Shown: positions 1-56,400 of the stretch, piece by piece | Layout: each line of letters starts with the position of its first letter | Numbering within the stretch: the stretch's first letter is position 1 | Origin: Cenarchaeum sp. | GTDB taxonomy: Archaea; Thermoproteota; Nitrososphaeria; Nitrososphaerales; Nitrosopumilaceae | Direction: 5' to 3' | DNA: 64,000 nucleotides | NCBI GenBank assembly: GCA_963693095.2 | Contig: OY843768.1 | Span: 544,001-608,000, forward strand | Notes under the pieces: model-generated | The model's input: only the letters and a program-made list of their open reading frames with translations | Database searches by the model: none | What the model was told of the DNA's origin: nothing | Translations under genes and position numbers: made by a program

Positions 1-2
1 AG

Positions 3-32400: not shown

Positions 32401-35400
32401 TGTCGCGTCGCTCTCGCTTCCGGGCGGCGAGGCCAACAGACTGGCGATCATCAATGCAGGCGACGAGCTCTACCTCAATCTCGCCTCCGCGAGCGCAGGC
32501 ACAGACCTCGGCGACCTGACTGCCTCGGGCGTCACGTACACGCCGCGCGCCGGCGGCGCGCTAGTCGACGCGGCGAGAAACGCGTTCGTGACGGACAACG
32601 GCATGGTCGTGGCCACGGCTCTGGCAGACAGGGCGGCCCCCATGTTTGTTCGCGCCGCCTTTGCGACTGGCGGCACTGGCGTGACGCTGACCTTTACTGA
32701 GACGCTCGCCTCGCTGCCCTCCACGCTCGACTTTACGCTGACAACGACGGTGTCGGGCGCGCCGTCGACCACGCTCGGCACGGCGAGCGCCGAGGGCAGC
32801 ATGATAACGATCCAGGTGACGTCTGCCATCACGGCTGCTGATGACGGGACGGTGTACACGTTGACGATCGGCGGCACGGGCGCCATAGAGGACACCAGCG
32901 GCAACGAGTATGCCGGAGCACCTGTGGACGTCATATACGACTCTACGCCGCCGACGTTCACCGCAGGGTTCACCGGCGCGCGCACCATCGTGCTGACCTC
33001 CAATGAGGCCCTCGCGCCGGCGACAGTCGTGGCGGCCAACTTTGGCGTGACGGTGCCCAACGCAGTGTCGGGCGGCGAGCCCGTCAGCGTCGCGCTGGCC
33101 ACGGCAGACCCGGCAGCCGACCCGCCGGTGATGCCCATCGCCTATGACGCGACTGCACTCACAGTCACGCTCACGCTCGCCGCCGACGCGCCGCAGGGCG
33201 TGGTTCACACAATCACGCCGACTGACTCGCTGACCAACGTGGCGCACGTGCCGTACGCCGCCGGTGGCATCATGGCCTCGCGCGCACCCGCCGCGCCGAC
33301 GGCGACTGCCGTGGCTTACACGGTCTTTGAGGGCACAACGTCCACCGAGAGGACTTCGCCGTACGCATCCCACGCGCGCGCCGGCGACACGATCAGGCTC
33401 TCGATCACGCTTGACGGCGAGGCGAGCTCGGTTAGCGTGCTCTTTGTGGGCAAGACGGCCGCTGATGACGCAGTCCCAATGGACCGTGTCGATGCGACTA
33501 ACGAGTGGCGCGCGACGTATATCGTAGAGTCTGCAGGCTCCATAGACGGCCCGTTCACGTTTGTCGCGACGGCGATGACCTCCTCGGGCGCGACGGCGCC
33601 GGTGGACGAGACGACCCTGTCGACGCCGCCGCCTCCGACGATCGACCGCGCCGCACCGACCTTTGGCGCAGAGCTCACGTCTGCGGACACCGTGACGATC
33701 ACGTTTAGCGAGAATGTCAGCGGCACTACGGCGCCGGCCGAGTGGACCGTCGCCGGCTCGACAGTCACAGCAGTCACGCCCTCCTCGCCGTCCTCGGCCA
33801 GCGAGATCGTCCTCACGCTGTCGGCCTCGCGCGTGGGCACGGCACTGGCAGATCCGGACGGTGATGGCCCGCTCGCGGAGATCACGCCGGCAAGCGTGGT
33901 CTATACGCGCCCCGGGCCGTACTCGGCGACTGCGTCTAACACGATCGCCGACGCCGCTGCCCACGACCTCGCCGCAGCCGCCATGACGGCTGAGGCCACG
34001 GGGGTGACTGACGGCGCGCCACCGACGGCCAGGGCGGCCTTTTTGGGCAGCGCGATCGTCATCCTGTTCAGCGAGCCGGTCAACGGAGTGCCGGACACGC
34101 TGCAGGTCACGCAGCCGGGCGCATCGGCCGGCCCGCTTGGCGCAGACCACGCCGACGGCACCGACAGGGCGTCAGTCGCAGTCTCCTCGCCGCCTGCCGG
34201 CGATCACTCTGTCGCGCTGCCCACGGGCATAGATGACGCCGCAGACAACGCGCTCGCCGCCGCCTCGGTGACTGCCACGTACGCGGCGGACACGACTGCG
34301 CCGACGTTCAGGGCAGAGCTGGCCTCGGCGAGCACCGTGAGGATCGTGTTCAACGAGCCCGTCTTTGGCGCGAGTGCCGGCTCCGAGTGGGCAGTCGCCG
34401 GCTCGGGCGTCAGCGCCGTGGTGCCCTCCTCGCCATTTGACGCCACAGAGATCGTCCTCACGCTGGCCGTGGCGCGCACCCAGACCGTCCTGGCCGACAC
34501 CGACGGCACTGGCCCGCTCGCGGAGATCACGGCGGCGAGCGTGATCTACACGCGCCCGTCGACGGGCGATGACACGCTCCGGAACTCGGCGGAGCTTCAC
34601 CTTGCAACCGCCGCCGGCGGCACGACGGCTGCCACGGCGATAGCTGACAAGGCCCCGCCGACGCTCATAGCCGAGAGGCCGACGCTGGACCGCATCGACA
34701 ACACCCACATCGTGACCTTCTCCGAGCCGGTCATGCTGGCGTCAGGCAAGTCGCTGCCAGAGTCGGCGGACTGGACGTTCTCCGGCAGGACCAGCCTGGG
34801 GGACATCCCGGTGCCGTTTAGAGCCCAGACGGGAGAATACTTCTCCTCCGGGGTGGCCTTTGGCTACGCCATCGACCTGGGCACAGGCGACAGGGCGACG
34901 CTGGTCCCGCAGGATACGTCAAGAAGGGACCGCGATAATGGCGTTCCCGCGTTCAGGAACATCGCGCCGGCCACGGTCATGATCACCTTTGACGCGCAGG
35001 CCGACGGCAGGGTCGGCTCGATCGTCGACGCCGAGGGCAACGCGCTGGCAGAGGGGGCCTCGACGCCGGTGGGCGACTTTACGGCGCCGACGTTCACGGC
35101 CAGGACGCTTGGGCTGGCGCTCACAGAGGTCGCGTTCACCGAGGCCGTCACGGGCACGGCGCGCGCGGCGGACTGGTCGGTCTCCGGCACGCAGGCCACC
35201 GGCGTCTCCCTCACCAGTGGCGGCGCAGGCACGGCCACTATCGGGCTCGACCGCCAGTCGGTGATGTACCTCGTCCACGCCGACCTCGCATCGACTGACG
35301 CCGAGCCGACGGTGTCGTACGCGCGCCCGTCCGAGTCAGGAACCGGAACGCTGGCCGACCCCGCGACTATCGTCATGGGCACCGTCAGCACTCCGCTGGA

Positions 35401-38400
35401 GGCCACGGCCGCAGACGGCATCGCCCCGACGGTCAGGACCTCCGAGTTCACCGGGCCGAACAAGCTCGTCATCACGTTCAGCGAGCACCTGGCGGCGTTT
35501 ATACCGGTCAATGTTGATAATGATAGTGGTAAGTATGTTGTATTGCGCTATGGAGAGGCGGTTCCGACAGACATTGGCGAGTACCCCGTAACGCTCCCCG
35601 ACGGCGAGTCCGTGCCTCTCACCGGCACGGCCGACTATGCCGAGCAGGCCACCACCTCGACAGTCACGCTCACGCTGGCCTCGCCCTCGGCGACGGGCAC
35701 GATCCACACAGTGGCGCTCCCCAACAACATAACCGATGACGCACGCAACCAGCTCGCCGTGGACGCGACGGCGAGCGCGACGTACACGGCGTCGACGCAG
35801 ACTGACACCATGCCGCCAACGTTCACGGCGCGCGTGTTCAACACCACACACGTCGTGGTAAAGTTCGACGAGCCCATACAGGGCACGACGGCCGTGGCAG
35901 ACTGGGCGATCACCCTGACGGGCACCACCACGCCAACGCTGGTCGGGGCGACTCAGGATCCTGGTGCGGGCAACAATGCTCCGCGCCTCAAGGGCAGCGC
36001 CACCATACTGGCCGCCCACGAGTTCGACGGCCTGCTGTATGTCGGCGCCCTCAAAGCCGCCCCATTCCTGGCGCTCACTGACACGCCCACGGTGACGTAC
36101 ACGCAGCCGGCGACCGGAGGCCTCACCGACGTGCTGCCCGAGGGGGACACGCCCAACAGGGTGCAGACCGGCAGCACGGTGGCCTTGGCAGGGGACAAGA
36201 CGCGTCCCACGGTCACGTCCGCGGCATTTACGGCCGAGCACACGATCACGGCCACATTCAGCATGGATGTCACGTTCGTGACTGGAGTCGATAACTACGC
36301 GTCAGACGACGCGTGGACGGTGACGTCGCCGAGGGGCAGCCTGGCCGTAGAGTCCGCCGAGCGCACGTCCTCTGACACGTACACGCTCACGCTGGATGAT
36401 GACACCGATACAATTCCTGGCAGGGCGTACATGGTTACCCCAGACGAGAACGTCCTGGACTTTTATGGCAATTCCGCGCTCAGAGTCAGCGGCGGAGACA
36501 CCGGCCCCCTCATGTCATACCCCGTGCAGGCCTACGACGGGCCGCTTGATGCCAGGACACAGACGTCCACCACGACGCTCATCACGTTTGACGGCGGGAG
36601 CCTCACCGGCACGCTCGCCGTGGCCGACTGGGCAGTCGCCGAGGCGGCCCCCGAGACTGCCGCGAGCATTGCCATATCGAGCATCGCGACGGTGACTGCT
36701 GACGGGATGGGCCAGGTCACCGCGACGCCGGTTGACGGCTCCACGCCGGCAGTCACGCACGTGCTGGGATCCACGCCCACAGTCACGTCGCTGCTCATCA
36801 CGCACGCAGAGCTCTCCAACACGGCCTCCACGCCCATAGTCACGTACACGCGCCCTGCGTCTGACGGCCTGATGGCCGGCACGACTGCCGTGCCGACAGG
36901 CCCTGTTGACGCCGCAGACGGCGCGCCGCCGGCGCTTGCCGACAGCGGCTCGCTCTTTATGCTCAGGGCCGATCGCCACACTGCCCAGTCACAATATTAC
37001 ACCCAGAATCCTGCCGGCGCCGGCCATAACGCATGGGTGATCATAAAGCCCACCGAGCCCCTCCATGCCGGCGGCTCGCCCATAGAGTTTATTGGCGCCA
37101 ATCCTACCGACGACAGCTACACTCCATCTGCCGCCGCCGCTGACATTGCGTTCTTCCCCGGCACGTCCTCGCCCGCAGGCGCCCTGGTCGCGGGCAAGGC
37201 CCAGAGCACGCAGGTGTACAACTATTCGTACGCCGTCACGGCCTCCTCGCCGGAGGGCGCCATCCCGTTCACGCTCACCGTGCGCGACGGCGCCGGCAAC
37301 ACGGCGACGTTCACGCAGGCGGACCTGACTGACGACTCGTCTGACACCGGTTCAGGCGCCCTGATAGCCGGCGGGGGATACCGCGTGAGCGTCGACCGGA
37401 CCGCCCCCACGGTCGACTCCTCCGCGTTCACCGCGCCGAACGAGCTCACCATCACGTTCGACGAGCACCTGGTGGCGCTTGCGGCACCGGCGAGTGCGGG
37501 GGCGATCAGGGACGTGGCAGGCGTTCCGACAGACGTTGCCAGGTACCCCACAACGACCCCAGACGGCACCGTGACCCTCACCTCGGCCGTCTATGCCGAG
37601 CAGGCCACCACCTCGACAATCACGCTCACGCTGGCCTCGGCCGCGGCGGCCGGCACGGCCCACACAGTCACGCTTCCCGTCGTGGGAGTTGACCCAAACA
37701 CGCTCACCGCACTGGCAGATGACGCAAAGAACCTCCTCGCGGCCACGACGGCGAGCGCGACGCGCCAGGCATCGGACACCACGGCGCCAGTCGCAAGCTC
37801 GATAGCCTTCGAGGTGTACGACGGCACGCCGGATGCCGGCACGCTAAAGACCGGCGACAGCAGGCTGCTCGCAAGCGACGGGGACACGATCCGCCTGATA
37901 CTGACGCTCAGCGAGGACGCCGCCGGCACGCCGACGATAGAGGTGCACGGCCGGACGGCGGCGGGGACCGCGATGGGCGACAACGGCGACGCGCTGGCCA
38001 CGACGTGGCACCACGACCTGTCCGTGACGTCCTCCTGGACTGAGGCGGCCTATACGTTCACGATCGCAGCGGCCGACGCGGCGACCAACTCGGAGCCCAT
38101 CACGCGGACCGCAGGCCTGGCCGCCGGAGTCACCGTCACCGTGCCGACCATAGACCTGACTGCGCCGACGGCGACTGCGGTCTTCTCGAGCACCAACACG
38201 CTCGTCATCACGGTAGGCGAGGCGCTACTCAACACGAAGGCCCAGGTGGAGGGCTATGCGTTCACCGTGAGCGCCGCCAGCAGCACCGTCTCGCTGGCCA
38301 CAGAAGATCTGATGGCTAACCCGCAGGTGATGCCCATCGTCTATGACGCCACGGCCAGCACGATCACGCTCACGCTGGCCAGCCTCGCGGCGGCGGGCGT

Positions 38401-41400
38401 GGAGCACACCGTCACGCTGCCGGCCGCGCTCACCGACAGGGCCGGCAACGCGTTTGCCTCGCCTGCCGAGGTCGACGCGACGCACATGTTGCCGTTCTTT
38501 TCGGCCGAGACGAGATCAGATAGGACTGTTCTAGTCACGTTTGACGCGGCGCTCACGGGCGCGACGGCGCCATCAGAGTGGCGCGTGGGCACCGCAACGC
38601 CTGCGGGCATCGCAGTTGGGGACGGCACTGCGCTTCCGGTTTCGCAGACGCTGACGGCCGACACAAAGATCACGCTGCACCTTGCATCTGGGGACAGGCT
38701 GGCCCACACTGCGTCCACGCCCACAGTGTCGTACACGAAACCGTCTGGCACCGGCGCCAACGTCCTGAGGGAGGGCACCAACGAGCAGGGCATCACCGGC
38801 ACGGCACTAACGGCAACGGCAGCGGACAAGGCGCCGCCGACTGCGTCGATCACGTCTGGCGAGCTCGACGAGCTAGTCATCACGTTCAGCGAGCCGCTCG
38901 ACTCGGCCACGCTGCCGACGACGTACGAGATCGAGGTAGAGAGCGACGGCACGCTAGTGGACCTGCACGAGACCACCCTTCCAGCGTACGCCGCGCAGGC
39001 GACCTCCTCTACAGTCACAATCACGCTCGCCGATGACGCCACCGTCGAAGTCGAGCTCGTCGTAAAGATACCGAATTCGATAACGGACGCAAACTCCAAT
39101 GCGTACTCGGGCGATTCCCTCTCCGTTACGCCAAAGGCCGCCGCTGACACGACGAGGCCGACGTTCACCGCCGAGACCGTCAGGCCCGGCCACGTCACGA
39201 TAGAGTTTGACGAGCCGGTCTTTGGCGCGACGGCTACGGCCGACTGGAGCGTCGGCGGCGCCACGCCCTCGGGAATCACGGCTACGACAGTAGGCGGCGC
39301 ACCCGTCAGGACGTCGCTGATTCCGAGATTTGTCGAAGGCGTCCAACAGCCACCGCCGCTGGTTCTGGGCCCGATGATCGTGAGAATCGCCGACCCGATC
39401 ACCTCGATGACGCTGCAGCTCAGCCCAACGCTCGGGGCTGACGCAACGCCGAGCGTGGCATACACGGCACCGGCGCCTGAGACGCTCCCGCTCCCGCCCC
39501 CGTCATCGCCGACGAGGGGCCTGCGCGACACGGCGCTGCCCACGTCCAACGGGATGGCGACTGCGACGGTTATGGCAACTGACGGCATAGTGGGCGCCAT
39601 CGTGCCGTCTGCCACGGCGCTCACGCTGAGCACGCTCACCGCCGGCGACACCCCTGCGATCCCGCCGACCCTCGTCGGCACGGGCTACAAGGTCACGTTC
39701 ACCCTCACGCTTGACTCAACGCCGGCCTCGCTGCCGCAGATCAGGCTCTTTACGACGGGTGCGACGGCAACTGCCATGGCCTTGGACAGTGGCCAGGGCG
39801 TGCCGGCCAACACGTACACGCACACGCACACCGTGGTGGCCGCAGACCCCGACGGCCTCCTGTCGCTCTGGATAGACGTGGGCGCAAACACAGTCGTCTC
39901 GCACGTCGCGACGACAGTTGACCAGGGCACGCCGACTGAGAGGATAGAGTATGTCACGACGGGCCTGCCGAGCCAGGCCCCGCCGCCCCTGGCAGTGACA
40001 GTCGACACGACGGCACCGGGCGTTGAGTCCATCGTGCTCGGCTCGCCGCCTGATGACCCGACGACGACCGGAACGGACGAGTCGACAACGCGCTCGACGA
40101 TAACGCTGACGTTCAACGAATTCATGAATCGCCCGACGCTCACCAGGAGCTCGCTCCCCGTGACGCTGTCGACCGGAACGGCAAGTGTCATCGCAGACGA
40201 CACGAACACGGCCGGCATAGACGAGGGCGTGCTCATTGGCCAGGCTCCGCTGAGGTCGCTGACCGACGCGCCCCGCACGCAGGTCACCATCACGCTTGAC
40301 TCCCCGCTGGTGGTCAGCACAGAGTACACGGTCACACCGGCAACCACGGTGACTGACACCGTGGGCAACGCGTACGCCGGCACCGCCGTCTCTGCGACGC
40401 ACACGGTCATACAGCCTCTGGCCTACACGGCGCGCGCGACGTCGACGACAACCACTGTTATCACGCTTGCCGGCGCGCTGGCCTCGTCAGTCACGACGTC
40501 GACTGACCTCGACGAGCTAGAGTGGCATGTCGAGGACGCAGTGAGGGTGGCCGGAGAGCCGTCCGTCTCGGGCTCGCAGAGGATCGTCTCGCTTGCGGCA
40601 GTCACGGCGACTGGCACTGCGCCCACAGTCACGCTCACGCACGCGCCGCTGACAGTCACGCAGACGCCGCTCATAACGTACGTGCCCGGCACGGAGGCCG
40701 ACCTTGCCGGCGACGATGGCGCGCCGCTCATCACGACTGGCGTGCGCGCCGCTGACGGCATTGCGCCGACGGCGACTGCGGCATTTGGCACGGGGCTAGT
40801 CGCCGGCGATGACACGTTCTCGACGGTTCGCCTTACGTTCAGCGAGGCCCTCTCGACAATAACGGGCGCGACATTCGCCGTGAACGGCCCGAGGGTCGAC
40901 TCGGGCAACGGCCCGACAGTCGCGCTCCGGCAGGACGACCCCGCCACTACCGGCGTTGACGAGTCTGCAGCCAATGCCGTCTATGCGGCCGGCCCGCCGG
41001 CCACAGTCACGCTCACGCTTGACTCGGATGTTGCCGACGGCGTGTACACCGTCACGATCACCGGCGTCAGCGACGCGAACAGCAACGCGTACGCCGCCGG
41101 CGCGATCAGCGCGCGCAGCCCAGTCGACTTTGTGCCGCCGCGCACGGACTTCCACGTCTCCTCCTCCTCGTTCACGTCCCTAGACACGCTACGGCTCGAG
41201 TTCAGCGGCGTCCTTGTCAACACGGATGGCGCGCTTGACGGCGTGACGTTTGCGGTGAGCGGCCCGAGGGTCGACTCGGGTGACGCCGGTCCGGCAGTCA
41301 CGCTCCTGCAGGAGAGCGGCAGCCTGTCAGCGTCGGCCGTCTCGCACACCCTCATCACCGAGTCGCTTCCGGGCATGGCGCCCACGCCGGTCAACTCGGT

Positions 41401-44400
41401 CGTGACGCTAAGGCTCAACGCAGACGCCGCTGACGGCGAGTACACCGTCGCGATCGCCGGCGCCAGGCAGGCAGCAGACGCGACTGCCACGCCACCGCGC
41501 CTCGAGCGCGCGTACGCCGCCGGCGACGTCGCCGTGACGCTCGGGCCACTAGAGCCCAGGGCAGTGGAGCTGGACATTGTGGTTGCTGACACCAATGATG
41601 TGGAGCGGACCGGCGAGGCGACCTCGCTTGCGCGCGCCGGCGACAAGATAGTAATCACCGCAACGCTTGCGGACATGACGGCTAGCGCGCCTGTCATTCG
41701 CGCGTTTGGCGCCACTGTGTCAGAAGGCGAAGAGGAGACGACGACCTTTGGCGGCAGCGCCGTGGCCATGACTGCCGGCGCGACTGCGCGCGAGTGGACA
41801 TCAACGTTCACGGTGAGCGCCGCAGACGCAGACACGCCGGTGCCGGCAGCCGACGGCCCGTTCACGTTCCGCATGTCAGCGGACTGCACTGACGCGACTG
41901 ACACGGCCGCAGACCGCGACGGCTGCGTGGACACCGACCACGATGACGCCGCGCTCCTCGGCGCGATGCTGCCGACCATAGACCGGACACCGCCTGTGAT
42001 CGAGGACGTCACCATCGCGACAGTCAACGCCGCGAGCGCAAACGCGCTAGTCGTCGAGTTCAGCGAGCCCATAGCGGCCGGCACGCTCTCGCGCGACAGC
42101 CTCGTGGTGTCCACGGGAACCGGCGCGTCTGCGACGCGCGCGGCACTTGTGGCCGATGACGCCGACGAGGCAGGCGACTCGGCGCTCCTCCACAACGGAG
42201 CGACTGTCACGATCGTGCTCGCCGCCGCGCTGGCCGACGGCACGACGTACGTGATAACGCCGACGAATGCGCTCACCGACATCGCCGGCAACGCGTATGC
42301 GGCCTCGTCATACAGCGCGGCATACGGCTCGCTCGGCTATGCGGCTAGCCTGGAGTCGAGGACGACGACTGTGCTCACGTTCGGCGCCGCGCTACAGTCC
42401 TCACTCGGGGTCGGCTCCACGCTTGACGCCTCGCACTGGCGAGTCGAGGATATTGCCGGCTCGACCCCGCTGGCACTGCGCATCGCCTCGGTGGTTCCCT
42501 CGACTGTGGGTGCGACGACTGTCATGGAGGTGACGTTCAGCGACGCGCTGCGCTCCTCGACGGTGACTGCCTCGTCGATCACCGTCGCGGACTCTGATAA
42601 CAACGCGCTCACGCCGACAGTGTCGCACACGTCGGCCTCGCAAGTCGTGAGGCTCACCTTTGATCCCGCGCTGGCAGCCGGCACGTACACGCTCGGCGCG
42701 ACCACGGCCGTCACGACCACGTCCGGAGAGGCGCTGGGCGCCGCCGTGAGCAGAGCCGTCGCCTGGGACCCAGCCTCGTCGCCGACGGTCCAGTTTGACG
42801 ACGAGGGCCGCCCCACGCCGCACCCCTCGCGCGCCGCCGAGAGGAGCGTGATCTCGGCCACGCTGACGAGAGCCGGCACCTCGCCGCAGGTGACGATCGT
42901 CCACTCGCCGCTGCTCAACACGGACACGCCGGTCATCTCGTACTCGCAGTGCGACGCGGCCTGCCTGGCAGGCGCATCTGGCGCGCCGGTGACGACAGGG
43001 CGCATGGTCGCCGCCGACGGCGCGCCGCCGGAGGTCGTCTACGCCATGCGCACCTCAGACGGCAGGATTGCGATACCCTTCCACGAGGCCGTCGCCGGCA
43101 CGTCCACGGCGACGTTTACGGTGAACGGCCCGAGGGCGAGTGCAAGCGACGCCGGCCCGGCAGTGCCGCTCCACGGCACTCGCGCGACTGCCGTCTCGTA
43201 CAGCGACGCGTCACGGACGATCACGCTAACGCTGGTGGATCCGCTGCCGGAGACCGGCGAGTACACGGTGAGGATGATCGGCCTGACTGACACGGCGAGC
43301 CCCGTCAACCTGTACGACGCGGCTGACACGGTGAGCATATCACCGATCGACATGAGGCCGCCAGTCGAGTCCGTGGCGTTCACGACACCCTCGAGCCTCC
43401 TCGTCACCTTTGGCCTCGGGGTGGCCGGCGTGGGCGACATGGTGGGCGCCGAGGTGTGCGGCACTGCCGTGGAGGAGGGAGTCTCCGTCTTCCGCTGCGT
43501 CCTCGTCCCGTCTGATGAGACAGAGGGCACGGGCCTGACTGGCATCTCGGTCAGCTATCGGCGCGTCACCTCGTCAGTTGTCAACGGCGAGACAGTGCTG
43601 GCGCCACACTCCTCCTCCACGCTCGCCGGCGCGACCTTTGAGCTGCGCGGCCCGCGCGTTGACGACTCTGATCCCGGCCCGGTCATTGGCATATCGCAGG
43701 CGGCGTACTCTGGCGTCCCGCCGCCCACCGTCGGCATCGCGCTGGGCTCGCCGGTCTCGCCCGGCGCGTACTCGCTGAGCATCGCCGGCGTGACCGGCAT
43801 CACGCAACTGCGCCACGAGCTGGTCACTAGCATCGGCGTCGTCCTCGAGGCGCCAAGGCGCGCGGCGACTGCAATAGAGTACGATGTCCTAAAGGGCGCA
43901 GAGGGCAGCAAGACCATCGTGACTCCGGGCGACGGCAGGCTCTCACAGTTTGTGGGGGCTGGCGATGACATTAGGCTGACAGTCACGCTCAACGAGGCAG
44001 TCACGATGGCGCCGCAGGTCCGCTTTGTCGGCAAGGTCACAGCCGACGACGCCGACACGGCCGTTGACGAGTCCCTCGGCGTGCCGATGAGCGCAGTCTC
44101 GGGCAGGACCAACACGTGGACCACGACGTACACGGTAGAGACTGCCGAGCAGAACGCGGGACTGCGCGACGGGCCGTTCACGTTTGAGATACCGCACCCC
44201 GACGGCGTGTCTGTCGGCCCGACGATCACCGGCGCCTCTGGCCACGCCGCGCCGCTCATCGCGGCAAACAATGGCGTGCCGATAGGCCCTGTGGTGGACA
44301 CTGACCCGAGCAGCCCAACGTTCGAGCAGGTCCTCGACAGGCTTCACTCGGCGCCGACACCGCCGACGATAGACCGCACGGCGCCGACGATAGCGACAGT

Positions 44401-47400
44401 GTCGTTTGTTAGCGCAGATGCGGCCGCATCCAACGCGATCAGGGTAATGTTTGACGAGCGGATCAACCCCGCCACGCTCACCAGGGCAAGCCTGCCGGTG
44501 ACTGCCACCGACTCGTCAGGCAGTCCGCTGACCATCACGCTGCACACCGACGACGCGACCGAGGATGGCGACTCGGCGATACTCGTCTCCGCGGTCAACT
44601 CTGGCGTCGGCTCGGGCGCCTCCCAGTACACCGCCGTCACGATCGTCCTGGCCTCGGCGCTGACTGACGGCGCGACGTACACGGTCACGCCTGCGCCCAC
44701 AGTCACCGACCTGGCAGGCAACGCGCTGGCGCTCACCGGCACGGAGCCTGACACGCGCGCCGTCTCGGCGACGTACAGCGCCCCGCCGGCGGCCCTCACG
44801 TACACGGTGATGACGGCCTCGCCGACGCAGACGACAGTCACGTTTGGCGCCGCGCTCCATGCGAGGATCACGACGTCGACTGATCTTGACGAGGCAAAGT
44901 GGATCGTCGAGGACATTGCCGGCGCGAGCCCCGCCACGACACCGTCGGCCGCCGATGACCGCGCCGTCACTGCCATCACCGTCACCACGGTGGGCGCATC
45001 ACCCGTACTGACGCTCACGCACGAGGCGCTCACCGAGACCTCGCGCGCCCTCGTCTCGTACCGGCCGTCCCTCGGCGACCCGCCGACGTTCGACGCGGCA
45101 GGCGCGCCGGTCACGAGCCAGCCCGGCGCCACCGCGGGCCATGACATCGTCGGCGCCACCGGCGCAGCCGTCTCGACTGACGCGGTCCACGCCACGGCAG
45201 GTGGCGCGCCGACTGTAAGGACGGTCTTTGAGTCATCTGCCACCACGCGCACGATCCTGCTCAGCGAGGAGGTGTCTGCCACGCCGACAGTCGAGATGCG
45301 CGCGACAGGCACGCCGACGTATGCGAGCGCCGCCGTGGAGGCCACCGCGGGCCGCGCGATACTCGTCGCCTCGACGCTCTCTGGCAGCGTCGACGTGAGG
45401 ATAGCGGGCATACACTCATCGACCGTGGAGGCCACCGGCGTGCCAGTCGCCACGGACCGCATAGACACCGACGTCTATATCGTGCCCGGCGACGCGACGG
45501 CTGCCACGGTGGTCGGCAGGGACGCCTCGCATGGCCTGCGCGACGCCTCGGGCCGCGCCATGGCGCCGCTCTCGGCCTCCTTTAACGTGCCGGCCGACGG
45601 CGAGCTCGTCCTGATCGCCGTGTCCCCGTCAGTCAGCGACAGGTCAGTGAGGCTCCTGTTCAGCGAGGCCATCGATCCGGCATCGGTCAGCGCCTCGGCC
45701 TTTGAGGTCACCGGCCCCTCGCCGTCCACAGCACCGCTGACGATAACGACTGCCACGCTCGATGCCGCGTTGTCAGTCGGCGCGCCTCGCAACGTGGTGA
45801 CGCTGGTCATAGCAGAGGACATATCCGCCGCGGGCCAGTACGTCGTGACGGCAAGGGCCGCCGGCGGAATCACGCAGCCTGACGCGGTGCCCGAAGGCGC
45901 ACTGGCAGCCGACTCGGTCTCCGTGTTCCGCGTGGCCGCCGCCGGCACCGCCACGCTCACGGCCGCCGCGCCGTCAGGCGCGCAGACAGTCGTCGCGACG
46001 CTCACGCCGGCGATCGACATGACCTCTGCAGGTCCGCAGGTCTTTAGGATAGTCGGGCCGTCAGGCGCGCAGCAGTTCCGCGCGATCGAGTCGACTACGG
46101 CGACGTCGGCCACTACGGTGAGCATATCGGTGCGGGCAGCACTGCCGGCAGGCACGTACACGCTGGAGACCATAGAGCCCCCGCGCGCGACTGGCCTGAC
46201 GCTCAACCTCGACAGGCTTGACGGCACGGCGGGAGCCGGCACGGCAGCAGACACAGTCGACGCGCCGATAACTGCGAGGATTGACGGCGCCGAGCTCGTC
46301 ATCCCGTCCGGAGCCACGTTCACGTTTGGCAGCGCCGCCGAGGCGGTCCTCCTGGAGCGCGCCGCACTCGACGCGGATGAGGCATACTCGGCGCCGGGCT
46401 CGTCGCCGACTGCAGCGGACACTGCGGCTGCTGCTGCAATCTCCGCGATCATCGAGTCTGACGCGGCAGCCAGGGCGCTTGGCGCACGCGGCGACGCGCT
46501 CTCCTCGGTACCGCTCATAGAGGCCGGCAGCGCGTCATCGGGCATATCGCTCTCGGCACCCGCATCGCTGCGCATAGACGGCGATGCGTCTGACACCGGC
46601 GCCATCCACGCGTTCTACCTCTCTGGCGCCGATAACGACGTCGTCAACGCCGTGCCCGAGTGCGCGGACAGCGTGACGCACACGACTGCGCCGACGCTTG
46701 GCGCCGGCGAGGACTGTTACGTCGAGGACGGCGCCGACGTCGTCATCTGGACGAGCCACATGACGCAGTTTGGCGTCGCGACTTCTGGCACGCCACTCAC
46801 GTTCGTTGCGTCAAGCACGTCGGCCACGCAGACCCTCGTCACGTTCAGCCTGCCGGTGTCCGGCACGACGGCGGCAGCCGAGTGGGCGGTAAACGGCGTG
46901 CAGGCCACGGGAGTCGCCTCTGCTGGCGCAAGCGCAGCAGCGCAGACGCTCGACGACGACTATACGCTCACGCTGACCCACGCAGACGCCGGCACGGCGG
47001 CAAGGGACTCGGTCACGTACACCAGGTCGGCCGGCCAGTCCTCACAGATCCTCTTATCGGGCACTGGAGACGACACGATGGAGCTCGCAGCGCCGGGAGA
47101 CACGGTTAGCGCAGATGCGCTTGGTGATGCGGCATCGCCGACGTTCACGGCAGAGTTCCTTGATGCCGACACGATCACGCTCTTGCCAAGCGAGGCTCTC
47201 GACGCTGACACCGTCACGGGAGCCAACTTTGGGCTCAGCGGCCCGGACGGCCCTGATGCGGGCAGCCTGCGCGACATTCTCGCACTCGACGCGACGACGC
47301 CTGTAGATTACACGGCCGGCACGACGACTATCGCGCTAAACCTCGACGAGTCGGCGATTGCAGACGGCCTCTATGTCATCAGGCCATCCACGTCAGTCAC

Positions 47401-50400
47401 CGACGTCAGGGGCAACGCGTACGTCAGCAGCGCCGGCTCGCTTGCCACAGGCCTCGTCTTTGCTGCCACTGACGCGACGGCGACATACGACCCAACGCTC
47501 GGCGACTTTGATGCGCGCGCGCAGAGCCTGGTGGTGACGCGCGTCACGTTTGGCGCGGCCCTGGCCGGCACGCTTGATGTCGGCAACTGGACCGTGACTG
47601 ATGATGACGCAGACGTGGCCATGATCACGCGCGTGGCACTGGGCTCGGCGGATGACGCGCGCGAGGCTACGCCTGACACGACGCACGCGATCGCGCAAGG
47701 CTCTGCGGCTCTCGCACTGTTCATCACGCACGAGGAGCTCGACTCGACAGCTGCCACGCCGAGAGTCGCCTACGCCGGAGGCGACCTGACTGCCGGCGGG
47801 CTCGACGTGGCCGACCGCGGAGTCGAGGCCGCCGACGGGATCGCCCCGTCCATCGAGTCGGCCATGTTCACCGATGCTGACATGCTCGACATCACGATCA
47901 GCGAGACGCTCCTCAACTCAAAGGCAGACGTGGACGGCTACACGTTTGGCGTGACGGTGCCAGACACCGACTCGGACGGCGTTCCTGAGGATGTCCAGCT
48001 GGACGGCACCAACCCCGTCGACTATGACGCGACGGCCAGCACGATCACGCTCACGCTCGCCGGTGATGCCACGTCGGCCATCGTGCACACCGTCACGCTG
48101 CCTGCCGCGCTAGTCGACAGGGCAGGCAACGCGTTTGCCTCGCCGGCCGAGGCGGACGCGACGTACACGCCGGATGTCGCGCCGGCGGCGACTGACGTGG
48201 AGTACACGGTTCTTGAGGGGACAACGTCCAACGCGAGGCCTGACCCGTACTCCTCGCACGCGCGCGCAGGCGACACGATCATGCTCTCGATCACGCTCGG
48301 CGGTGAGGCGAGCTCGGTTAGCGTGCTCTTTGTGGGCAAGACGGACGATCCGGACACGACGGCAGACGACGCCAACACGGTTGCCATGGCGCGCGTCGAG
48401 AGCACGAACGAGTGGCGCGCGATGTACGTCGTAGAGTCTACAGGCACCATCGACGGCGCGTTCACGTTTGACGCGACGGTGACGGCCGCCTCGGGCGCGA
48501 CGCGCCCTGTGGACGAGGCGACCCTGTCGGCGACGACGCCGCCGACGATCGACCGCGCCGCGCCGACGGCGACGGTGACTGCGACTGTGAGGCTCGCGGG
48601 CCAGGGCACTGATGCGGCATCGGGCACGATCGCCGGCATCGGCGACACTGTCCGCGTCAAAGTTGCGGCCAACGAGCCGCTCGTCACGGCACCCGGCGAC
48701 ATTGCGCTCTTTGGGACGTCGACTGCCGCCGACTCGGTGGACCCCGGCACGTCCAACGCGTACTCGTACGTGCGCACAATAGTCGCCTCGGAGGCCAACG
48801 GCCCACTCACGTTCAGCCTGACGATACGCGACAGGGCAGGCAACGAGGCAACGCTCACGCAGGCCGACGTGGAATCGAACGTGACAGTCGACTCTGACGC
48901 GCCGACGCTATCCTCGGCGGCCACGGCGACGACGGCCACGCTGACTGTCACGCTCTCAGAAGCCGTCACGGGAGCCGGCGTCACCACCGAGTGGTCTGCA
49001 GAGGACGGCGCGACGGAGGCTATGATCTCCGGCGTCGACGTCTCGGGCAGCACGGTGACACTCACTTACGCGACGATCGCCGACACGTCATTTGCGCCGA
49101 CAGTAGAGTACACGGGCACGGGCATAGTCGACGCTGCCCGCAACGCCATAACGCTTGACTCCGCGACGTCTGCGGCCACAGTGGCTGCGACTGACGCCCT
49201 AAGGCCGGAGATAGACACCTCCACGTTCACGGCGGCCGACAAGATATCGGTGACCTTTAGCGAGGCCGTGACGAGTGACCTGAGGACAGGGGCGGAGGGA
49301 TGGTCCGTGGTGGCCGGCTCCAGCCTCACGGTGAGCGACGTCATGTTTGCCTCCCCCACGTACACGCTCACGGTGTCCGACGTGGTGCCCGGCACAGAGT
49401 ACACGATCAACGCAGCAGACATGATCGACGACCTCGTCACGCCGACGGCAAACAGGGTTCTCTCCACCGAGTCTGACACTGCGACGTACACGGCGCCTGA
49501 CCCCTTCGCGGCCGCCACGAGAAGCCTCACGACGACGCTCGTCACGTTTGACGGCGGCGCGCTGGCCGGCACCCTCGACGTGGACGACTGGACGGTCACG
49601 GACAACGACACCGGCTCGGCTGACGCGGAGCTGGTCATATCGAGCGTGGCGACGGTGGCCGCCTCCGGCTCGGTGACGGCGACGCCCGAGACCTCGGCGG
49701 GGGCCGGTGATGCGGTAACACCGGCCATACCGTCGAGCCCTGCGGCCACGCAGCTCCTCATCACGCACGGGCCGCTCTCCTCGACGGCGGCCACGCCGCG
49801 CGTCGACTATGCCGGCGGCGACCTCAGGGAGGGCGGCGCCAGCGGCACCGGCGTCGCCGACGGCGGCGCCGACGCGGCCGACGGCGTGCCGCCGACGTTC
49901 ACGGTTCACGACGCGACAGAGGCCGAGGAGGGACTCGTCGGCGTCACGGACGAGGACGGCCGGGTGATGTACTCCGTCTACACGGCCCGCATGTCCGAGG
50001 CGATGGACGCGGCGGACTTTGCCTCCACGCCGACCGGCGCAGACGGGCAGTGGTCCGTGGCGCTTGGCACGGCCACGGCGGCAGCCGACATGGTCCACCG
50101 CGCCGCCGCGGCCGGCCCGCTGCCCGACAGGGTAGTCGTGCGGGTCCTGGCGTCTGGCCTGGTGGCGTTCCCGTTCCCGCAGGGGACCCCGACGCTGACG
50201 TACACGGCCTCCGGCGACCTCGCGCTGGCCGACGCGGCCGCCGTGGCGATGGCCTCGCCGACGTCCGCTGCGGTGACCCCGGAGCCCCCGGCCGGGCCGC
50301 CGTTTGCCGCCGAGACGCGCAGCGCGACTACTACGATCGTGACCTTTGACGGCGGCGACCTGGGCGGCGCGCTCGCAGTCGCCGACTGGTCCGTCATGGA

Positions 50401-53400
50401 GAGCGGTGGCGTGGGGCAGCGCCTGGTCGCGCTGGTCGTGGAGACCGTCACGACCGACCCCACAGACTCTGTCAGGTCGAACACGGTCGGCACGCCCCAC
50501 GGCGCGCCTGTGGCCTCGGTGACGGTCGGGGCGTCGCCGGCAGTCACGCAGGTTCTCATCACGCACCCGCAGATCTCGACGGCGGCGACGCCGACGGTCT
50601 CGTACAGGGGGACTGGCCTGACCGAGGGCGGGATCGCCGTGGAGCTCGGCGACGCGGTGGCCGCCGACGGCGCGCCTCCGACGTTCGAGGCCGAGCTCAC
50701 GTCTGCGAGCTCCGTGAGGGTCATCTTTAGCGAGCCCGTCGACGGCGCGACGGCGGTTGGCGAGTGGGCAGTGGACGGCTCGGCTCCCGAGTCGCTCTCG
50801 CTGACAGAAGACGGGGCGGCCGAGGCGGGCACCGCGTCGCTCGCCGGCACCGAGGAGCTCTTTATCGCGCTCGCCGCGCCACGCCCAGGCACCGACCTGG
50901 GCGGGCTGACCGCAGCGGGCGTCACGTACACGGCGCCGACCCAGGGCGCGATAGAGGACGACACGGACAACGACCTTGGCACGGCAAACACCGCCCTGCA
51001 GGCCACGGCAGTCACCGACAAGGCGCCGCCGATGATCGTCTCGGCCACGTTCACCGACGCCGACACGATATCCGTCACGTTCACCGAGGACGTGACCAAC
51101 GTGACTGACATTGTGGGAGGCGACGGCTGGTCGGTGGAGCTCGGCAGCACCCCCGTCGGCCTGAACTCGGCGGCGCGCACGGCCGACTCGACGTACACGC
51201 TAGAGCTCACCGCCGGCGTGGACACCGGCATGGCGCACACGATCCACGCGGCCGACGCGATAGCCGACGTCTCAGACGCGGCCAACCCGATAGACGCCGG
51301 CGCCATGACGACGGCGACGTACACGGCGCCGGCGCAGGCGCCGACGATAACGGGCGCGACGCTTGACACGCCGACGTCAATCACCGTCACGTTCTCAGAA
51401 ATGCTTGACGGCGAGACGGACGCCGACGAGTGGAGAGTCGACAACACGGCGCCGGCCTCGGTGACGGCAGGCGGCTCGACGGCCGCCGCCGGCACGGAGC
51501 TCACGATAACGGCGGCCACCATGACGCTCACGCTAACGCTGGCCAGCGCGCAGGACGCCGACGCGACGCCGATAGTGACGTACACGCGGCCGACAGGCAC
51601 CAGCGCCAACTCGCTGGACAACCCGGCCGACACCCCGCTCGACTCGACGCTCTCGCCCCACGTCACGGCCGCCGACATGATCGACCCGTCCATCGATTCG
51701 GCCAGGTTCACGGCGGCAAACATGATCGAAGTCACGTTCACCGAGCCGGTGACAGAGGACACGTCGACGTCGGCGGCGGGCGGAACCGGCTGGTCGCTGA
51801 CTGACACGGTGGGCAGCCTCGCCGTGCAGACAGTCGCGCACTCGGGCAGCACGTACACGCTCACGCTCGACGGCAACGCCGTGCTTGCCAGGGCGTACAC
51901 GATAGACGCCGCTGACGGGATAACCGACGAGTCTCCGGCGGACAACCCTGTAGACGACGGTGAGAGGGTCGGCGTGACGTACACGATACCGGACACGTCA
52001 GTTCCGACGTTCAGCGCAGAGCTCACCTCGGCGAGCACGGCAAGGATAGAGTTCAGCGAGGCCGTCAGCGGCATGACGGCGGCCTCCGAGTGGGCGTTTG
52101 CCGACTCGACTGTCGAGTCGCTCTCGCTGATGGCCGACGGGACGTTTACGATGGGCAACCTCGTGCTCTCCGGCACCGAGCTCTTTGCCACCTTTGACAG
52201 GGCCCGCACGCGGACTAGCCTGGACAACGGCGACGGCAACGACGACGGCACCGCCGTGGAGATCACGCCGGCAGTCGTGACATACACGCGCCCGTCGACT
52301 GGCGACAACACGATCCAGGACGGCACGAACCACCTCGCCGCCGCCGGCGACTCGACAGACGCCACGGCCGTCACCGACAAGGCCCCGCCGACGTTCACGG
52401 CGCGCACGGTGACGGTGACGACGATCGCCGTCACCTTTAGCGAGGCGATACACAACACGTCCGCTAGCGCCGACAATCCGCGCGCCGACGTGCTAAGCGT
52501 GACAAATTGGGACGTGGACGACGGCACGCCGAGCTCCCTGGTCGCGGCCAACTTTACGCAGGCCGGTGCCCCGACGGGTCCCGGTAACGCGGCATACACG
52601 GTCTTTACGCTCACATTCGCCAGTGCCTTTGGCGTGGACGCCACGCCCACAGTCACCTATGTCCGCTCCGGCCCAGGCTATCTGAGCGACGCGCTGACGA
52701 GCCACTTCAGAGACCATTCCGACAACAACGAGATTTCAGACGACGCGCTGGCAGCAGTGGCGACCGACGGCATCGGTCCGGCCATCGACACGACAGCGCC
52801 GACTGTCAGCACGGACGACGTGGAGTTCAGGCGCAGCGCCGACGGCATGACCTATAGCATAAGGATCCACTTCAGCGAGGCACTCGACAGGGACACAGTC
52901 ACGGCGGCAGGCAACTTTGCGCTCACGTCCAACAGCAACCCCGTGACGGTCACCCCATCCTATGTCGCGCCGGCCTCGGGGCAGACCACCTCGCACGTGG
53001 ATCTCGCCCTGACGACTGCGCCGACAATGTCTGCCAGATATTCGATCACCATCGCCCCCGCCGTCACTGACGTGGCGATGAACGCAGTCGCCTCCGCAAG
53101 CCGCTCCTTCACGGTGGATCTCGACATCACCCCGCCGACGGTCTCCTCGGCGGCGTTTAGCGGCCTCTCGACCATAGTCCTCTCGGTCAGCGAGCCCCTT
53201 GACACTGACACCGTGACCGGCCTGACCGTCATGGGCCTGGGCAGTGCCACGGACCTCACGGTCTCCACGGCGGCAAACATGGGAACCTCCGCGCCATACA
53301 CGGTCCACGCCACGACAACCGACGCGACGGCCAACGCGAGGTACACGCTGACGGTCCCGACAACGGTGACTGACGACTCTAGCACGCCAACTGCGCTGGC

Positions 53401-56400
53401 AGCGCCGGCGACGTTCACGGTCACTGCGCCGGCGACGGGCGGGACGATCGCCACGCCGACTGTGATGTCTGCGCAGACTACGAGCCGCGAGACGACAACA
53501 GTCACGTTCAGCGGCACGCTCGCCCTCGGCGAGACGAGCGCCTCGGACTGGGCGCTAACGCCTGGCTCAATCACCGTCACATCGTTGCGGGCCGGCATGC
53601 AGACCGAGGCCGCCTCGACGCCGTCGGCTACGCTGGACATGGGAGACGTGTCGATCACGCCGACCAACATGATAACGCTGGTCCACACCACCATAGGCAC
53701 AGGCGCCACGCCGACCGTGCAGTATGACGGGACGGGAACGATAACGGCCTCTGGCGCGCCGGGCGTCGTGCCGACCACGGCCTCCCCGCACACCACGGCG
53801 ACTGACGGGGTCGCGCCGCTCGTGATGACTGCGACATACGCTGAGACAAACCGCGAGATAACGCTCACGTTCAGCGAGGGCCTGGACTCCGACACGGTCA
53901 TCGCGGCCAACTTTGCGGTGCGCGGGTTCACCGAGCCCACGACGCGCTCGGACACGCTGGCGTTCAACACGGCGCACGGCACGGACGGAGTCCTCTACAC
54001 GGCTGGCTCCTCGGACTCTGAGACCTCGATGGTCTCGATCAGGCTCGCCACCTCTGACTCGTATGACGACTACAAGGTCGTCATAGCGGGCTCGGTTATG
54101 GACACAAACACCAACGCGTACGTGCCCATAGACAACCCTGACGGCAGCGACGCTACTGACGACAGCGACGTCGACGTCGAAAAGGTCGACGAGACTGCCC
54201 CGCGGGCCACGGAGATAACAGCCACAGTCCACGACGGCACGCCGGGCGCGAGCACGGCAAAGACCGGCGATCACAGGACCTTTGCCGGCATCGGCGACAC
54301 GGTTCGCCTGGACATCACGCTCGACGAGGACGCCTCTGGCACGCCGACCATAGACGTGGCCGGCGTGACTGGCGCCTCGATGGACGACATGGCAGACGGC
54401 GACGCGACGACGTGGCGCTATGACCTCGTCGTGTCGGCCACGACGGTCGAGACGTCATCGCTGACCTTTACGATAAACGTCACCGACGGCGATAACTCTG
54501 GCACGATAACGGAGACGACCGGACACGTGGGCACGCTGATGTTCAACCGGCCGACCATAGACGTGACGGTGCCGACGGCGACGGTGACGACTAGCGTGAG
54601 GCTCGAGGACGCCCCGTCAGACTCGTCGACAGTCACCACGGCCGGCATCGACGACGAGCTTCGCGTGACGCTCACGGCCAGCGAGGCGCTCGACGCACGG
54701 GTCACTGACATTGATCTCTTTGCGGCTGCAGTGGACGCCGACTCCGTCGAGGGCGCCGGCGCCAACGCGTACGCGTACGTGCGCACGATAGTGGCGGATG
54801 ACGCCAACGGCGATATCGAGTTCTCCGTCACGTTCCGCGACAGGGCCGGCAACGCGGCAGCGGCCGCATTGACGCACACCGACGCGACGCCGCGCGTGAC
54901 AGTCGACGCCACGCCGCCGACCATAACGTCTGCCGCGACTGCATCCACCACGACGCTCACAGTCACGCTATCCGAGGCAGTCACGGGCGCCGGCACGTGG
55001 TCTGCAGTGGATGGCTCGACGACTGCAATGATCTCCTCGGCGGGCGTCTCGGGCGACACGGTGACGCTCACGTACACGGCGATCGCAGACACGTCATTTG
55101 CGCCGAGAGTCACGTACTCGGGCACGGGCATAGTCGACGCCGGTCGCAACGCCCTGGTGTCCGGCAGCCAGCAAGGCGCCACTGACGGGGTCTCGCCGAC
55201 GGCTGAGGCGGCCTTCTCGGGCAACTCCATCGTCATAACGTTCAGCGAGCCTGTCACCGGCGTGACGTCCATGGACGTCACGGCGCCGATGGCGTCCACG
55301 TCCGTGTCCACGACCGCACACCACACCGCCGGCGAGGCGACTGTGAGGATAGACCCACCCACGCCGGTGGCAATCGGCACGTGGACAGTCGCCATACCGG
55401 CAACAGTCACCGACGTGGCGACCAACGCGCGCGCCACGACTAGCGTCACGGCCGAGCGCGCAGAAGCCCCCACGGCGACAGTCGCCTACGAGGTGCAGGA
55501 ACAGGCCACAATGACGGCAAAGGCCTCTCCGCACACAAACCACGCGCGCGCAGACGACACGATCGTCCTCTCGCTCACGCTATCCGAGTCCGTCGACACG
55601 GCGCCGACTGTCCTCTTTGTGGGCAAGACGACAAACCCGGTCACGATGACCAGGGCCGGCACGACGAACGTGTGGAGTGCGCCGTATGTCGTAGAGTCGA
55701 CCGGATCCATAGACGGCACGTTCACGTTTGCCGCGACGCTCACGGGCAACACGGGCTCGACGCGCCCCGTGAGCGCCGACCCGGCCACGGCACCGACAAT
55801 AGACCGCGTGGAGCCGACGGTCTCCACGACGGTGTTTATGGGCAACTCGATCGTCATAACGTTCAGCGAGCCTGTCTACAATGTGCCGATGACGCTTGAT
55901 GTCACGGCTCCGGGGGAGACCATGGACGAAGACACGACTGCACACCACACCGACGGCGAGGCGACTGTGAGGATAGACCTGACTGAGCCGGTAGATGTCG
56001 GCTCGTGGACAGTCGACATACCGGCAGCCGTCATCGATGTGGCAAACAATGCGCGCGCCGCAGCATCGGCGAGCGTAATGGCCATGCGCACCGACGCACC
56101 CACGGCGACGGTGGCCTATGCGGTCTTTGAGTCTGACGGCACGACGCACCGCACCGCACCGCACGCGGACCACGCGCGCGTCGGCGACAAGATCAGGCTC
56201 TCGCTCACGCTCTCTGAGGCCGTCACCACTGCGCCGACGGTCGTCTTTGTGGGCAAGGTCGACGATCCGTCCACGCCGCTAGTCGATGAGTCGGGCAGTG
56301 CCAACATGGTGAACGTGGCGGGAACGAACGAGTGGCGCGCGACGTACACCGTGGAGACAGACATGCAGGACACGGCAGAGCTCGGCAGCCCGTTCACGTT

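Follow-up and report, generated by a model that had tools for sequence, protein, structure and literature searches.

The window studied here is a stretch of 64,000 nucleotides of DNA from a Cenarchaeum-like, ammonia-oxidising archaeon (G000:C1:544001-608000), and its + strand is occupied by two very long open reading frames (ORFs; 3..20453 and 20486..64000) that belong to one giant gene. We consider it likely that nucleotides 46202-46798 encode a second, internal copy of a cis-autoproteolytic domain of the MAIN type (Microbial Autoproteolysis INducing) within a secreted protein of about 30,699 amino acids that is built of immunoglobulin (Ig)-like repeats. If both copies act, the protein probably breaks into three pieces that would stay together until pulled apart; cleavage, the continued association of the fragments, their release by force and a cell-attached end are inferred. 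The domain type itself has already been described by Brogan & Rudner (bioRxiv 10.64898/2026.05.12.724683, 13 May 2026), and it is the second, internal copy that is unusual.

In-frame translation of 46202-46790 gave exactly the text (...AVPECADSVTHTTAPTLGAGEDCYVEDGADVVIWTSHMTQFGVATSG) from which a sequence-only reading of the window had proposed an internal H-M-T site, and the distal copy that it had paired with this site reads WTNHFTQFG. The internal and distal domains are 36% identical over 164 columns (expectation value (E) = 5e-17). H-F-T lies exactly 5,437 residues downstream of H-M-T, which is the length given in that reading for the middle fragment. Its statement that the internal site is 5,400 amino acids from the end holds for the distance to the second site, but the end of the protein is 5,801 amino acids away. 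When the whole giant protein was searched with the family profile, exactly two domains were found (E 1.2e-42 and 6.8e-51), the rest scoring 3.6 bits or less, and a regular expression for the motif, run over all ORFs of at least 1,500 amino acids in the genome, matched copies of the domain only. Because profile and expression find copies of the domain alone, the occurrence of motif and domain is not a matter of chance. Some 600 residues ahead of the distal domain there is another Cys pair of similar spacing; a third, degenerate copy at this place was considered and rejected, as the profile finds no domain there. Repeat modules resume at once after H-M-T, as had been claimed: the following 330 amino acids match 35 places in all at E <= 1e-5 (23 in the downstream and 12 in the upstream part of the gene), and Big_5 was detected in the 1,000 amino acids on either side with 29.7 and 32.7 bits against a Pfam cut-off of 23.6.

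The genome holds ten copies of the domain, eight terminal-type and two internal, and all ten keep C...C..D..D..IWTxH(F/M/L)TxFG. Each of the eight terminal-type copies is followed by a G-rich stretch with C-D/S-D-C-T-P/S-P-T-L-G and then by a conserved module of about 330 amino acids that ends the protein. The second internal copy is 81-82% identical to the first and lies in an ORF of 24,633 amino acids (C1:1250631-1324529). A profile search of 1.84 billion representatives returned 212 proteins at E <= 0.001, most of which matched just over the C-terminal ~90 residues that form the beta-sandwich core. Motifs and architectures were counted in the best 150 of these 212 proteins, which contain 166 domain instances. 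H-x-T/S was present in 144 of the 166 (HFT 82, HLT 51, HMT 5, HFS 3, HAT 2, HLS 1); the other 22 were mostly extra copies in tandem multi-copy proteins. One to four sandwich copies with His and Thr replaced (TKVMQFYGA, TKRLAGFYGA) occur in P0009, P0012, P0015, P0017, P0018, P0061 and P0145, and by their sequences these look like non-cleaving derivatives that serve as repeat units. In an alignment of 59 diverse members, in which mean column identity was 18%, C154, C172, T184 and H186 were invariant and G109, T188 (T/S) and F190 were conserved in at least 90%. The family signature at the domain end can be written C…C…IWTxH(F/L/M)TxFG, and the two invariant cysteines are likely to form a disulphide (C154-C172).

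Public genome loci were scanned with the pattern D[VIL][VIL]IWTxH[FML]T and the eight-sequence alignment, a scan that sees that motif type only. By their titles, the best 80 of 166 confirmed loci came from archaea (Nitrososphaerota 18, DPANN 26, Methanosarcinales 3, unclassified archaea 4) and from bacteria (Patescibacteria 10, Bacillota 9, Actinomycetota 4, Gammaproteobacteria 4, unclassified 2), and the closest copies were those of Cenarchaeum sp. The family is wide. From the domain end to the C-terminus the 150 proteins have a median of 165.5 amino acids (typically 100-250), and 39 of them finish with a hydrophobic helix and a basic tail, an architecture like that of self-cleaving modules close to a membrane. 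Low-complexity linkers follow the domain in the family segments inspected; one member carries an LPXTG-type signal right behind the domain and another PEFG-CTERM. No model in Pfam or NCBIfam matches the domain. The name 'PGF-pre-PGF', borne by some relatives, covers a different region after the domain and was rejected as its identity.

The fold was predicted with AlphaFold2 on the 59-sequence alignment. The mean predicted local distance difference test score (pLDDT) was 73.5, with 80-94 in the core and 91-94 over residues 151-190; a first model made from the eight genome copies reached a pLDDT of 42 and was not used. In the predicted layout, three short strands at the N-terminus are joined by a disordered loop to a long helix, and a six-strand sandwich completes the domain. 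Strand 179-187 ends with H186 and M187, and T188 alone separates it from the last strand, 189-195, which places H-M-T in a turn before the last beta strand, where the sequence-only reading had expected it. Foldseek comparison with the PDB put an ankyrin ZU5 domain at the top (E 0.012, probability 0.94, template modelling (TM) scores 0.32/0.39) and found the GAIN domains of CD97 and CELSR1 at E 0.11-0.31. These ZU5 and GAIN matches span about 200 columns, the other matches being antibody variable (Ig) domains of about 90 columns. The model is suggestive, not decisive, of a GAIN/ZU5-type fold, and its floppy N-terminal third probably lowers the fold scores.

Brogan & Rudner define MAIN domains as counterparts of GAIN subdomain B in microbes, collected by Foldseek and then PSI-BLAST from B. 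subtilis YfkN (10.64898/2026.05.12.724683). As their text reports, cleavage of bacterial MAIN at HF↓S was located by Edman degradation and lost in S-to-A mutants, and the fragments co-purify; the prototype YfkN is cut at HF↓S and has a TM-score of 0.63 against latrophilin (10.64898/2026.05.12.724683). The order it gives for virtually all MAIN proteins is signal peptide, adhesion or enzyme ectodomain, MAIN and surface anchor, and MAIN domains are stated to be present in archaea, the bacterial ones alone having been assayed (10.64898/2026.05.12.724683). Our link to this class runs through a Paenibacillus protein and not through YfkN itself. Over 80 columns, hhalign aligned the genome's eight copies with the Paenibacillus domain at a probability of 94.3% and an E of 1e-7, and the HFT motifs coincide. 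The Paenibacillus protein consists, in order, of a pectate-lyase-like (Pel9A-like) beta-helix, Big_2, the domain and three SLH repeats, and its genome has one domain copy only. Given this match, the motif, where the motif is predicted to lie and the anchor-proximal location in the family, we class the domain as MAIN with fair confidence, as a Thr-type, Cys-bearing subfamily. The GAIN/ZU5-type site proposed earlier is supported in silico by the conserved motif, the modelled turn, this relative of MAIN layout and, weakly, the Foldseek matches (E >= 0.012).

As in MAIN proteins, H-x-(S/T) is predicted here to lie in a turn before the last strand of a beta-sandwich, behind large adhesive or enzymatic ectodomains in a large protein with a signal peptide. 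The distal copy fits the MAIN order as far as a signal-peptide-like N-terminus and Ig repeats go; where MAIN anchors are sortase, SLH or transmembrane types, the C-terminal module that follows it belongs to no recognised anchor family. The internal copy departs from the order, since 5,437 amino acids of repeats follow it, and such an extra copy upstream is foreign to the MAIN layout. The nucleophile is Thr here and Ser in YfkN, a flanking IWT...FG signature sets the domain apart from the prototype, and the two invariant Cys are missing from the Paenibacillus relative. The sequence-only reading had known of no giant archaeal adhesin with tandem autoproteolytic fuses: the domain type is in the May 2026 preprint, but the double arrangement is absent from its main text, in which 'tandem', 'two MAIN' and 'multiple MAIN' do not occur (10.64898/2026.05.12.724683).

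Other self-cutting systems share parts of this picture. The GAIN/GPS domains of adhesion GPCRs and polycystin-1 use HX(S/T) chemistry and are cut before a last strand that stays bound, as we predict here, and they too have paired Cys just upstream of the site and a helical segment N-terminal to the sandwich; the GAIN structures of CD97 and CELSR1 are among the few full-length fold matches, which are statistically not significant. Unlike GAIN proteins, the giant protein has no Pfam GPS/GAIN match, a helical part far smaller than GAIN subdomain A, no seven-transmembrane or polycystin part and no hydrophobic segment after the signal peptide. The ZU5/UPA type (PIDD1, the FIIND of NLRP1 and CARD8, and Nup98 by analogy) resembles it in an H-F-S-type site and in the N-to-O acyl shift that we propose here. 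For one chain that cuts itself twice, the nearest precedent is PIDD1, which is reported to do so at F445↓S446 and at S588, giving three fragments (PMC9162469); its sites are about 140 residues apart in adjacent domains, whereas those considered here are thousands of residues apart in a fibre. Proteins of the ZU5/UPA type are cytosolic, eukaryotic and engaged in signalling, in contrast to a surface fibre with no Pfam ZU5 match. Ankyrin ZU5 domains, the top fold match, do not cleave. The SEA cleavage motif is G↓S-V-V-V. SEA domains of mucins and SEAL domains of RsgI anti-sigma factors are likewise described as self-cutting in a beta-sheet turn, membrane-proximal, with fragments held non-covalently and separation by force proposed; they differ in fold and motif and are convergent according to the preprint (10.64898/2026.05.12.724683).

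The coordinates of the features in the window are collected in Table 1. The window has a G+C content of 67.5% and comes from a genome of 2.0 Mb (60% G+C, two contigs) whose ribosomal RNA operon is archaeal (small-subunit RNA, 1457.6 bits on the archaeal model) and whose proteins have metagenome-assembled genomes of Nitrososphaerota (Thaumarchaeota) as their nearest named relatives. The giant gene starts at an ATG at G000:C1:516070, 27,931 nucleotides upstream of the window, and the N-terminus encoded there, MGVGGGVLLVSALAVLALAALLPGALHGEAWA↓Q, is signal-peptide-like; in a scan of the whole protein this signal sequence was the sole strong hydrophobic stretch. The deposited sequence interrupts the frame at 20254. 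Past this point the tail of the upstream ORF is Arg/Pro/Ser-rich nonsense, and third-position G+C shifts to another frame near 20.3 kb, with gene-like values (0.78-0.91) on both sides. The ATG at 20486 falls within a repeat module which the paralogous giant gene has without interruption, and is no real start. That paralog is open through the equivalent of 20254, and in the alignment the window is 1 nucleotide short there. In four public runs belonging to two studies (X1, X2 and X3 from one, X5 from another), every contig that covers the site has an extra C behind 20254, at full depth. For this reason the frame break is a mistake in the deposited assembly, at most a variant. X1-X3, which may stem from the sample behind the assembly, disagree with the deposited assembly at this position.

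With the extra C added, the restored ORF encodes 30,699 amino acids in a gene of about 92 kb. If the chain that starts with the ATG at G000:C1:516070 were cut at M↓T and F↓T, its fragments would be 24,898, 5,437 and 364 amino acids long. The sequence-only reading had put the first of these at no fewer than 15,587 amino acids, which stands as a lower bound once the extra C restores the frame, and the last at no fewer than 309, a valid bound within the window, as the gene runs 165 nucleotides beyond it.

Table 1. Features of the giant gene and its two MAIN/GAIN-like domains in the window.
Feature	Position	Strand	Remarks
Giant gene, upstream part	1..20254	+	codons start at positions divisible by 3; open at the 5' end of the window
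One-base gap of the deposited assembly	20254..20255	.	extra C behind 20254 in public-run contigs joins both long ORFs
Giant gene, downstream part	20255..64000	+	frame of 20486; ends at G000:C1:608165, 165 nucleotides past the window
Internal MAIN/GAIN-like domain	46202..46798	+	199 amino acids as modelled
Parts of the internal domain	strands 46268-46327; helices 46412-46507; beta-sandwich core 46544-46786	+	AlphaFold2 model
Span between the two invariant Cys	46661..46717	+	C154 = 46661-46663, C172 = 46715-46717
H186-M187-T188, predicted autoproteolytic triad	46757..46765	+	motif, conservation, model; H = 46757-46759, M = 46760-46762, T = 46763-46765
Last beta strand, QFGVATS	46766..46786	+	model strand 189-195; pLDDT about 91 for residues 181-190
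Inter-domain repeat region	46787..62512	+	Big_5-type Ig-like modules
Distal (terminal-type) MAIN/GAIN-like domain	62513..63109	+	alignment, profile
H-F-T of the distal domain, in WTNHFTQFG	63068..63076	+	predicted cut F↓T between nucleotides 63073 and 63074
Start of the conserved C-terminal module	63110..64000	+	GGGGDGCDDCTPPTLG... then about 330 amino acids; common to 8 proteins of the genome

Internal copies were found in the two paralogous giant genes of this genome only. In a tree built from 24 copies, the internal pair stands apart on a long branch of its own (0.94 changes per column) and the terminal domain of the same protein groups with other terminal copies, so that the internal pair is not its duplicate. 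Most likely, the internal copy arose when an upstream gene was fused on with its MAIN domain retained and its C-terminal module lost, and the giant gene was later duplicated. Two motif-bearing copies were also present in 4 of the 150 representatives, P0011, P0056, P0058 (Nanoarchaeia) and P0095 (Peregrinibacteria), on the basis of which the two-copy arrangement appears rare but recurrent.

The observations that weigh against a second self-cutting domain are brought together here with the alternatives on which they bear. The copies found in a further four genomes of the genus, including a complete one, and in five other genera of the family are all of the terminal type, and the giant ORF of 25,697 amino acids in the complete genome (G004) carries a terminal copy alone; the internal copy is on that account dispensable, and perhaps a by-product of gene fusion. 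It is conceivable, though in our judgement unlikely, that the terminal copies cleave themselves while the internal one is an uncut relic of the fused upstream adhesin that now acts as a spacer domain. Such a history would suit the restriction of internal copies to two paralogous genes, their separate lineage in the tree, which fits a fusion origin, the 13-residue insertion that both have relative to genus relatives and the rarity of Met before Thr (5 of 166 instances). The ratio of nonsynonymous to synonymous substitution (dN/dS) between the internal copies, 0.43, amounts to moderate constraint only. Yet the domain is more constrained than the 2,000 amino acids upstream (0.43 vs 0.70), which is modest evidence that the internal copy is maintained, and every position conserved in the 59-sequence alignment, invariant or nearly so, is kept in both internal copies despite their long branch. 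HMT occurs in terminal-type copies of other taxa as well, the proteins with two motif-bearing copies belong to unrelated lineages, and extra copies that lost their function elsewhere lost H and T. The motif is no guarantee of cutting, since several animal GAIN domains with an intact motif stay uncleaved. More sweepingly, the whole family might be a non-catalytic beta-sandwich, a ZU5-like binding or stalk domain in which H-x-T-x-F-G is structural and neither copy cuts, which we regard as improbable. The best fold matches are to non-cleaving ankyrin ZU5 domains and all are weak; ZU5 and GAIN did head the list in the AlphaFold and Foldseek check that the sequence-only reading had proposed, but no PDB entry matched at E <= 0.001 and TM-scores were 0.3-0.4. 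With the domain as query, the sole Pfam-named cluster in the ESM Atlas had ZU5 on 45% of its members (score 0.84), a lead only. The Pfam models GPS (PF01825), GAIN (PF16489) and ZU5 (PF00791) gave no match in the two regions of the window at E <= 1 and none in the 59 aligned members at E <= 10, and sequence searches of the PDB returned nothing relevant, the chance matches being to ice-binding proteins at E > 0.1. YfkN-like proteins were not among the 12 matches of a word-indexed search with the 59-sequence alignment, and when an HFS-type member was run against plasmids with tblastn, the one match was a chance one (E = 7) and no YfkN-type protein appeared. On the other side, an invariant His with Thr/Ser at +2 in a predicted turn is the catalytic geometry of GAIN, MAIN and ZU5-FIIND/PIDD; the family is akin to an SLH-anchored enzyme of MAIN layout from Bacillota, and bacterial MAIN domains have been shown to cut. 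The motif is also lost precisely in extra tandem copies, as is expected of a catalytic and not of a structural motif.

The remaining points concern the two ends of the protein. If the frame break at 20254 were real, the part with both domains would be without a signal peptide of its own and the gene would be a pseudogene or split. The break is present in the deposited sequence and 20254 is not in a long homopolymer; the paralog (G000:C1:1247713-1324529; identity about 80% in the surroundings of the internal domain) is broken up in the same manner near its 3' end, where long ORFs of 24,633 and 1,061 amino acids overlap at 1250631-1250895, which may reflect a second assembly indel. Against this stand the extra C in every covering contig of X1, X2, X3 and X5, the gene-like third-position G+C on both sides and the location of ATG 20486 inside a module that the paralog reads through, and we hold a genuine break to be highly improbable. 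At the other end, the C-terminal 364 amino acids contain no transmembrane helix (maximum Kyte-Doolittle 1.18 over 19 amino acids) and match no known anchor family, so the attachment point in the picture of a tether is putative, and the two-stage, force-released tether put forward by the sequence-only reading is unsupported as written. The C-terminal module, which matched no Pfam, NCBIfam or ESM Atlas family, is presumed to be the attachment module. It has the pattern GGGDGCDDCTPPTLG..DSTG.RRV.GGFSYN...EYYYTP.PL followed by about 300 further residues, and it ends eight proteins of the genome and those of genus relatives (also L007:2068-3120). In the family's other genera, a Gly/Ser linker leads into another conserved tail (...GILGTPL.INEVSYDKC...).

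For a protein with two MAIN-type domains we propose the following course, drawn from GAIN and MAIN chemistry. The chain would be exported by means of its N-terminal signal peptide and the beta-sandwich would fold. His186 would then deprotonate Thr188, which would attack the carbonyl of Met187, and an N-to-O acyl shift with ester hydrolysis would break the chain at the predicted scissile bond, M↓T, between nucleotides 46762 and 46763. The new piece would begin TQFGVATS..., and its strand would stay hydrogen-bonded in the sandwich, leaving a non-covalent joint. The terminal copy would do the same at HF↓T (between 63073 and 63074). The mature form would thus consist of chains of 24,898, 5,437 and 364 amino acids in series with two mechanically breakable joints, and its most likely use would be to shed the long adhesive part under load, as has been proposed for MAIN and GAIN proteins. 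Only tentatively, and as something we find rather doubtful, can it be added that the two joints may differ in strength: under load the distal adhesive part of 24,898 amino acids would be shed first, at H-M↓T, and the 5,437-amino-acid stalk would be kept, to be dropped at H-F↓T only under another load or condition. Graded mechanical release in two steps is not described for GAIN, MAIN or SEA proteins. The two-joint arrangement may have arisen repeatedly, given that the 4 of 150 representatives include DPANN archaea, candidate-phyla bacteria and unnamed lineages.

If both joints are cut, the GAIN-type principle of "cut but hold" would be used twice in one archaeal chain. What is new is the double arrangement within an archaeal fibre of about 30,700 amino acids; the two-stage fuse is an attractive inference. 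The MAIN concept would, if this is true, extend beyond wall-anchored enzymes of bacteria and take in the surface fibres of archaea that oxidise ammonia, and it would gain a Thr-type, cysteine-clamped subfamily, to which much of the set of archaeal, DPANN and candidate-phyla matches found here belongs. Such a protein would also be a natural system for the tuning of mechanical strength between serial joints, and would point to the C-terminal module as a likely attachment device. The giant protein is one of the longest prokaryotic proteins on record, and its gene of 92 kb is split in the deposited genome through a one-base error. For comparison, a 2023 preprint on giant genes cites titin, at about 40,000 amino acids, as the largest protein often reported.

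Cysteine is scarce in the giant protein (32 residues, 0.1%), and almost all of it is paired at distances of 2 to 55 residues, two of the pairs being those of the MAIN domains. This pattern suggests a small number of deliberate disulphides in a fibre that is otherwise free of Cys. Very long ORFs are common in the genome: 22 are of at least 1,500 amino acids, at least one antisense shadow ORF being counted in, and together they take up about 19% of the 2.0 Mb. Further giants have 16,125 (C1:337113-385487) and 11,156 amino acids (C1:50437-83904). Three ORFs of 1,701, 1,701 and 1,667 amino acids (G000:C1:1277-6379, 7518-12620 and 1971240-1976240) are identical or almost so in their composition figures, and one of them extends to the contig end; they may represent a tandem duplicate or the overlapping ends of a circular contig.

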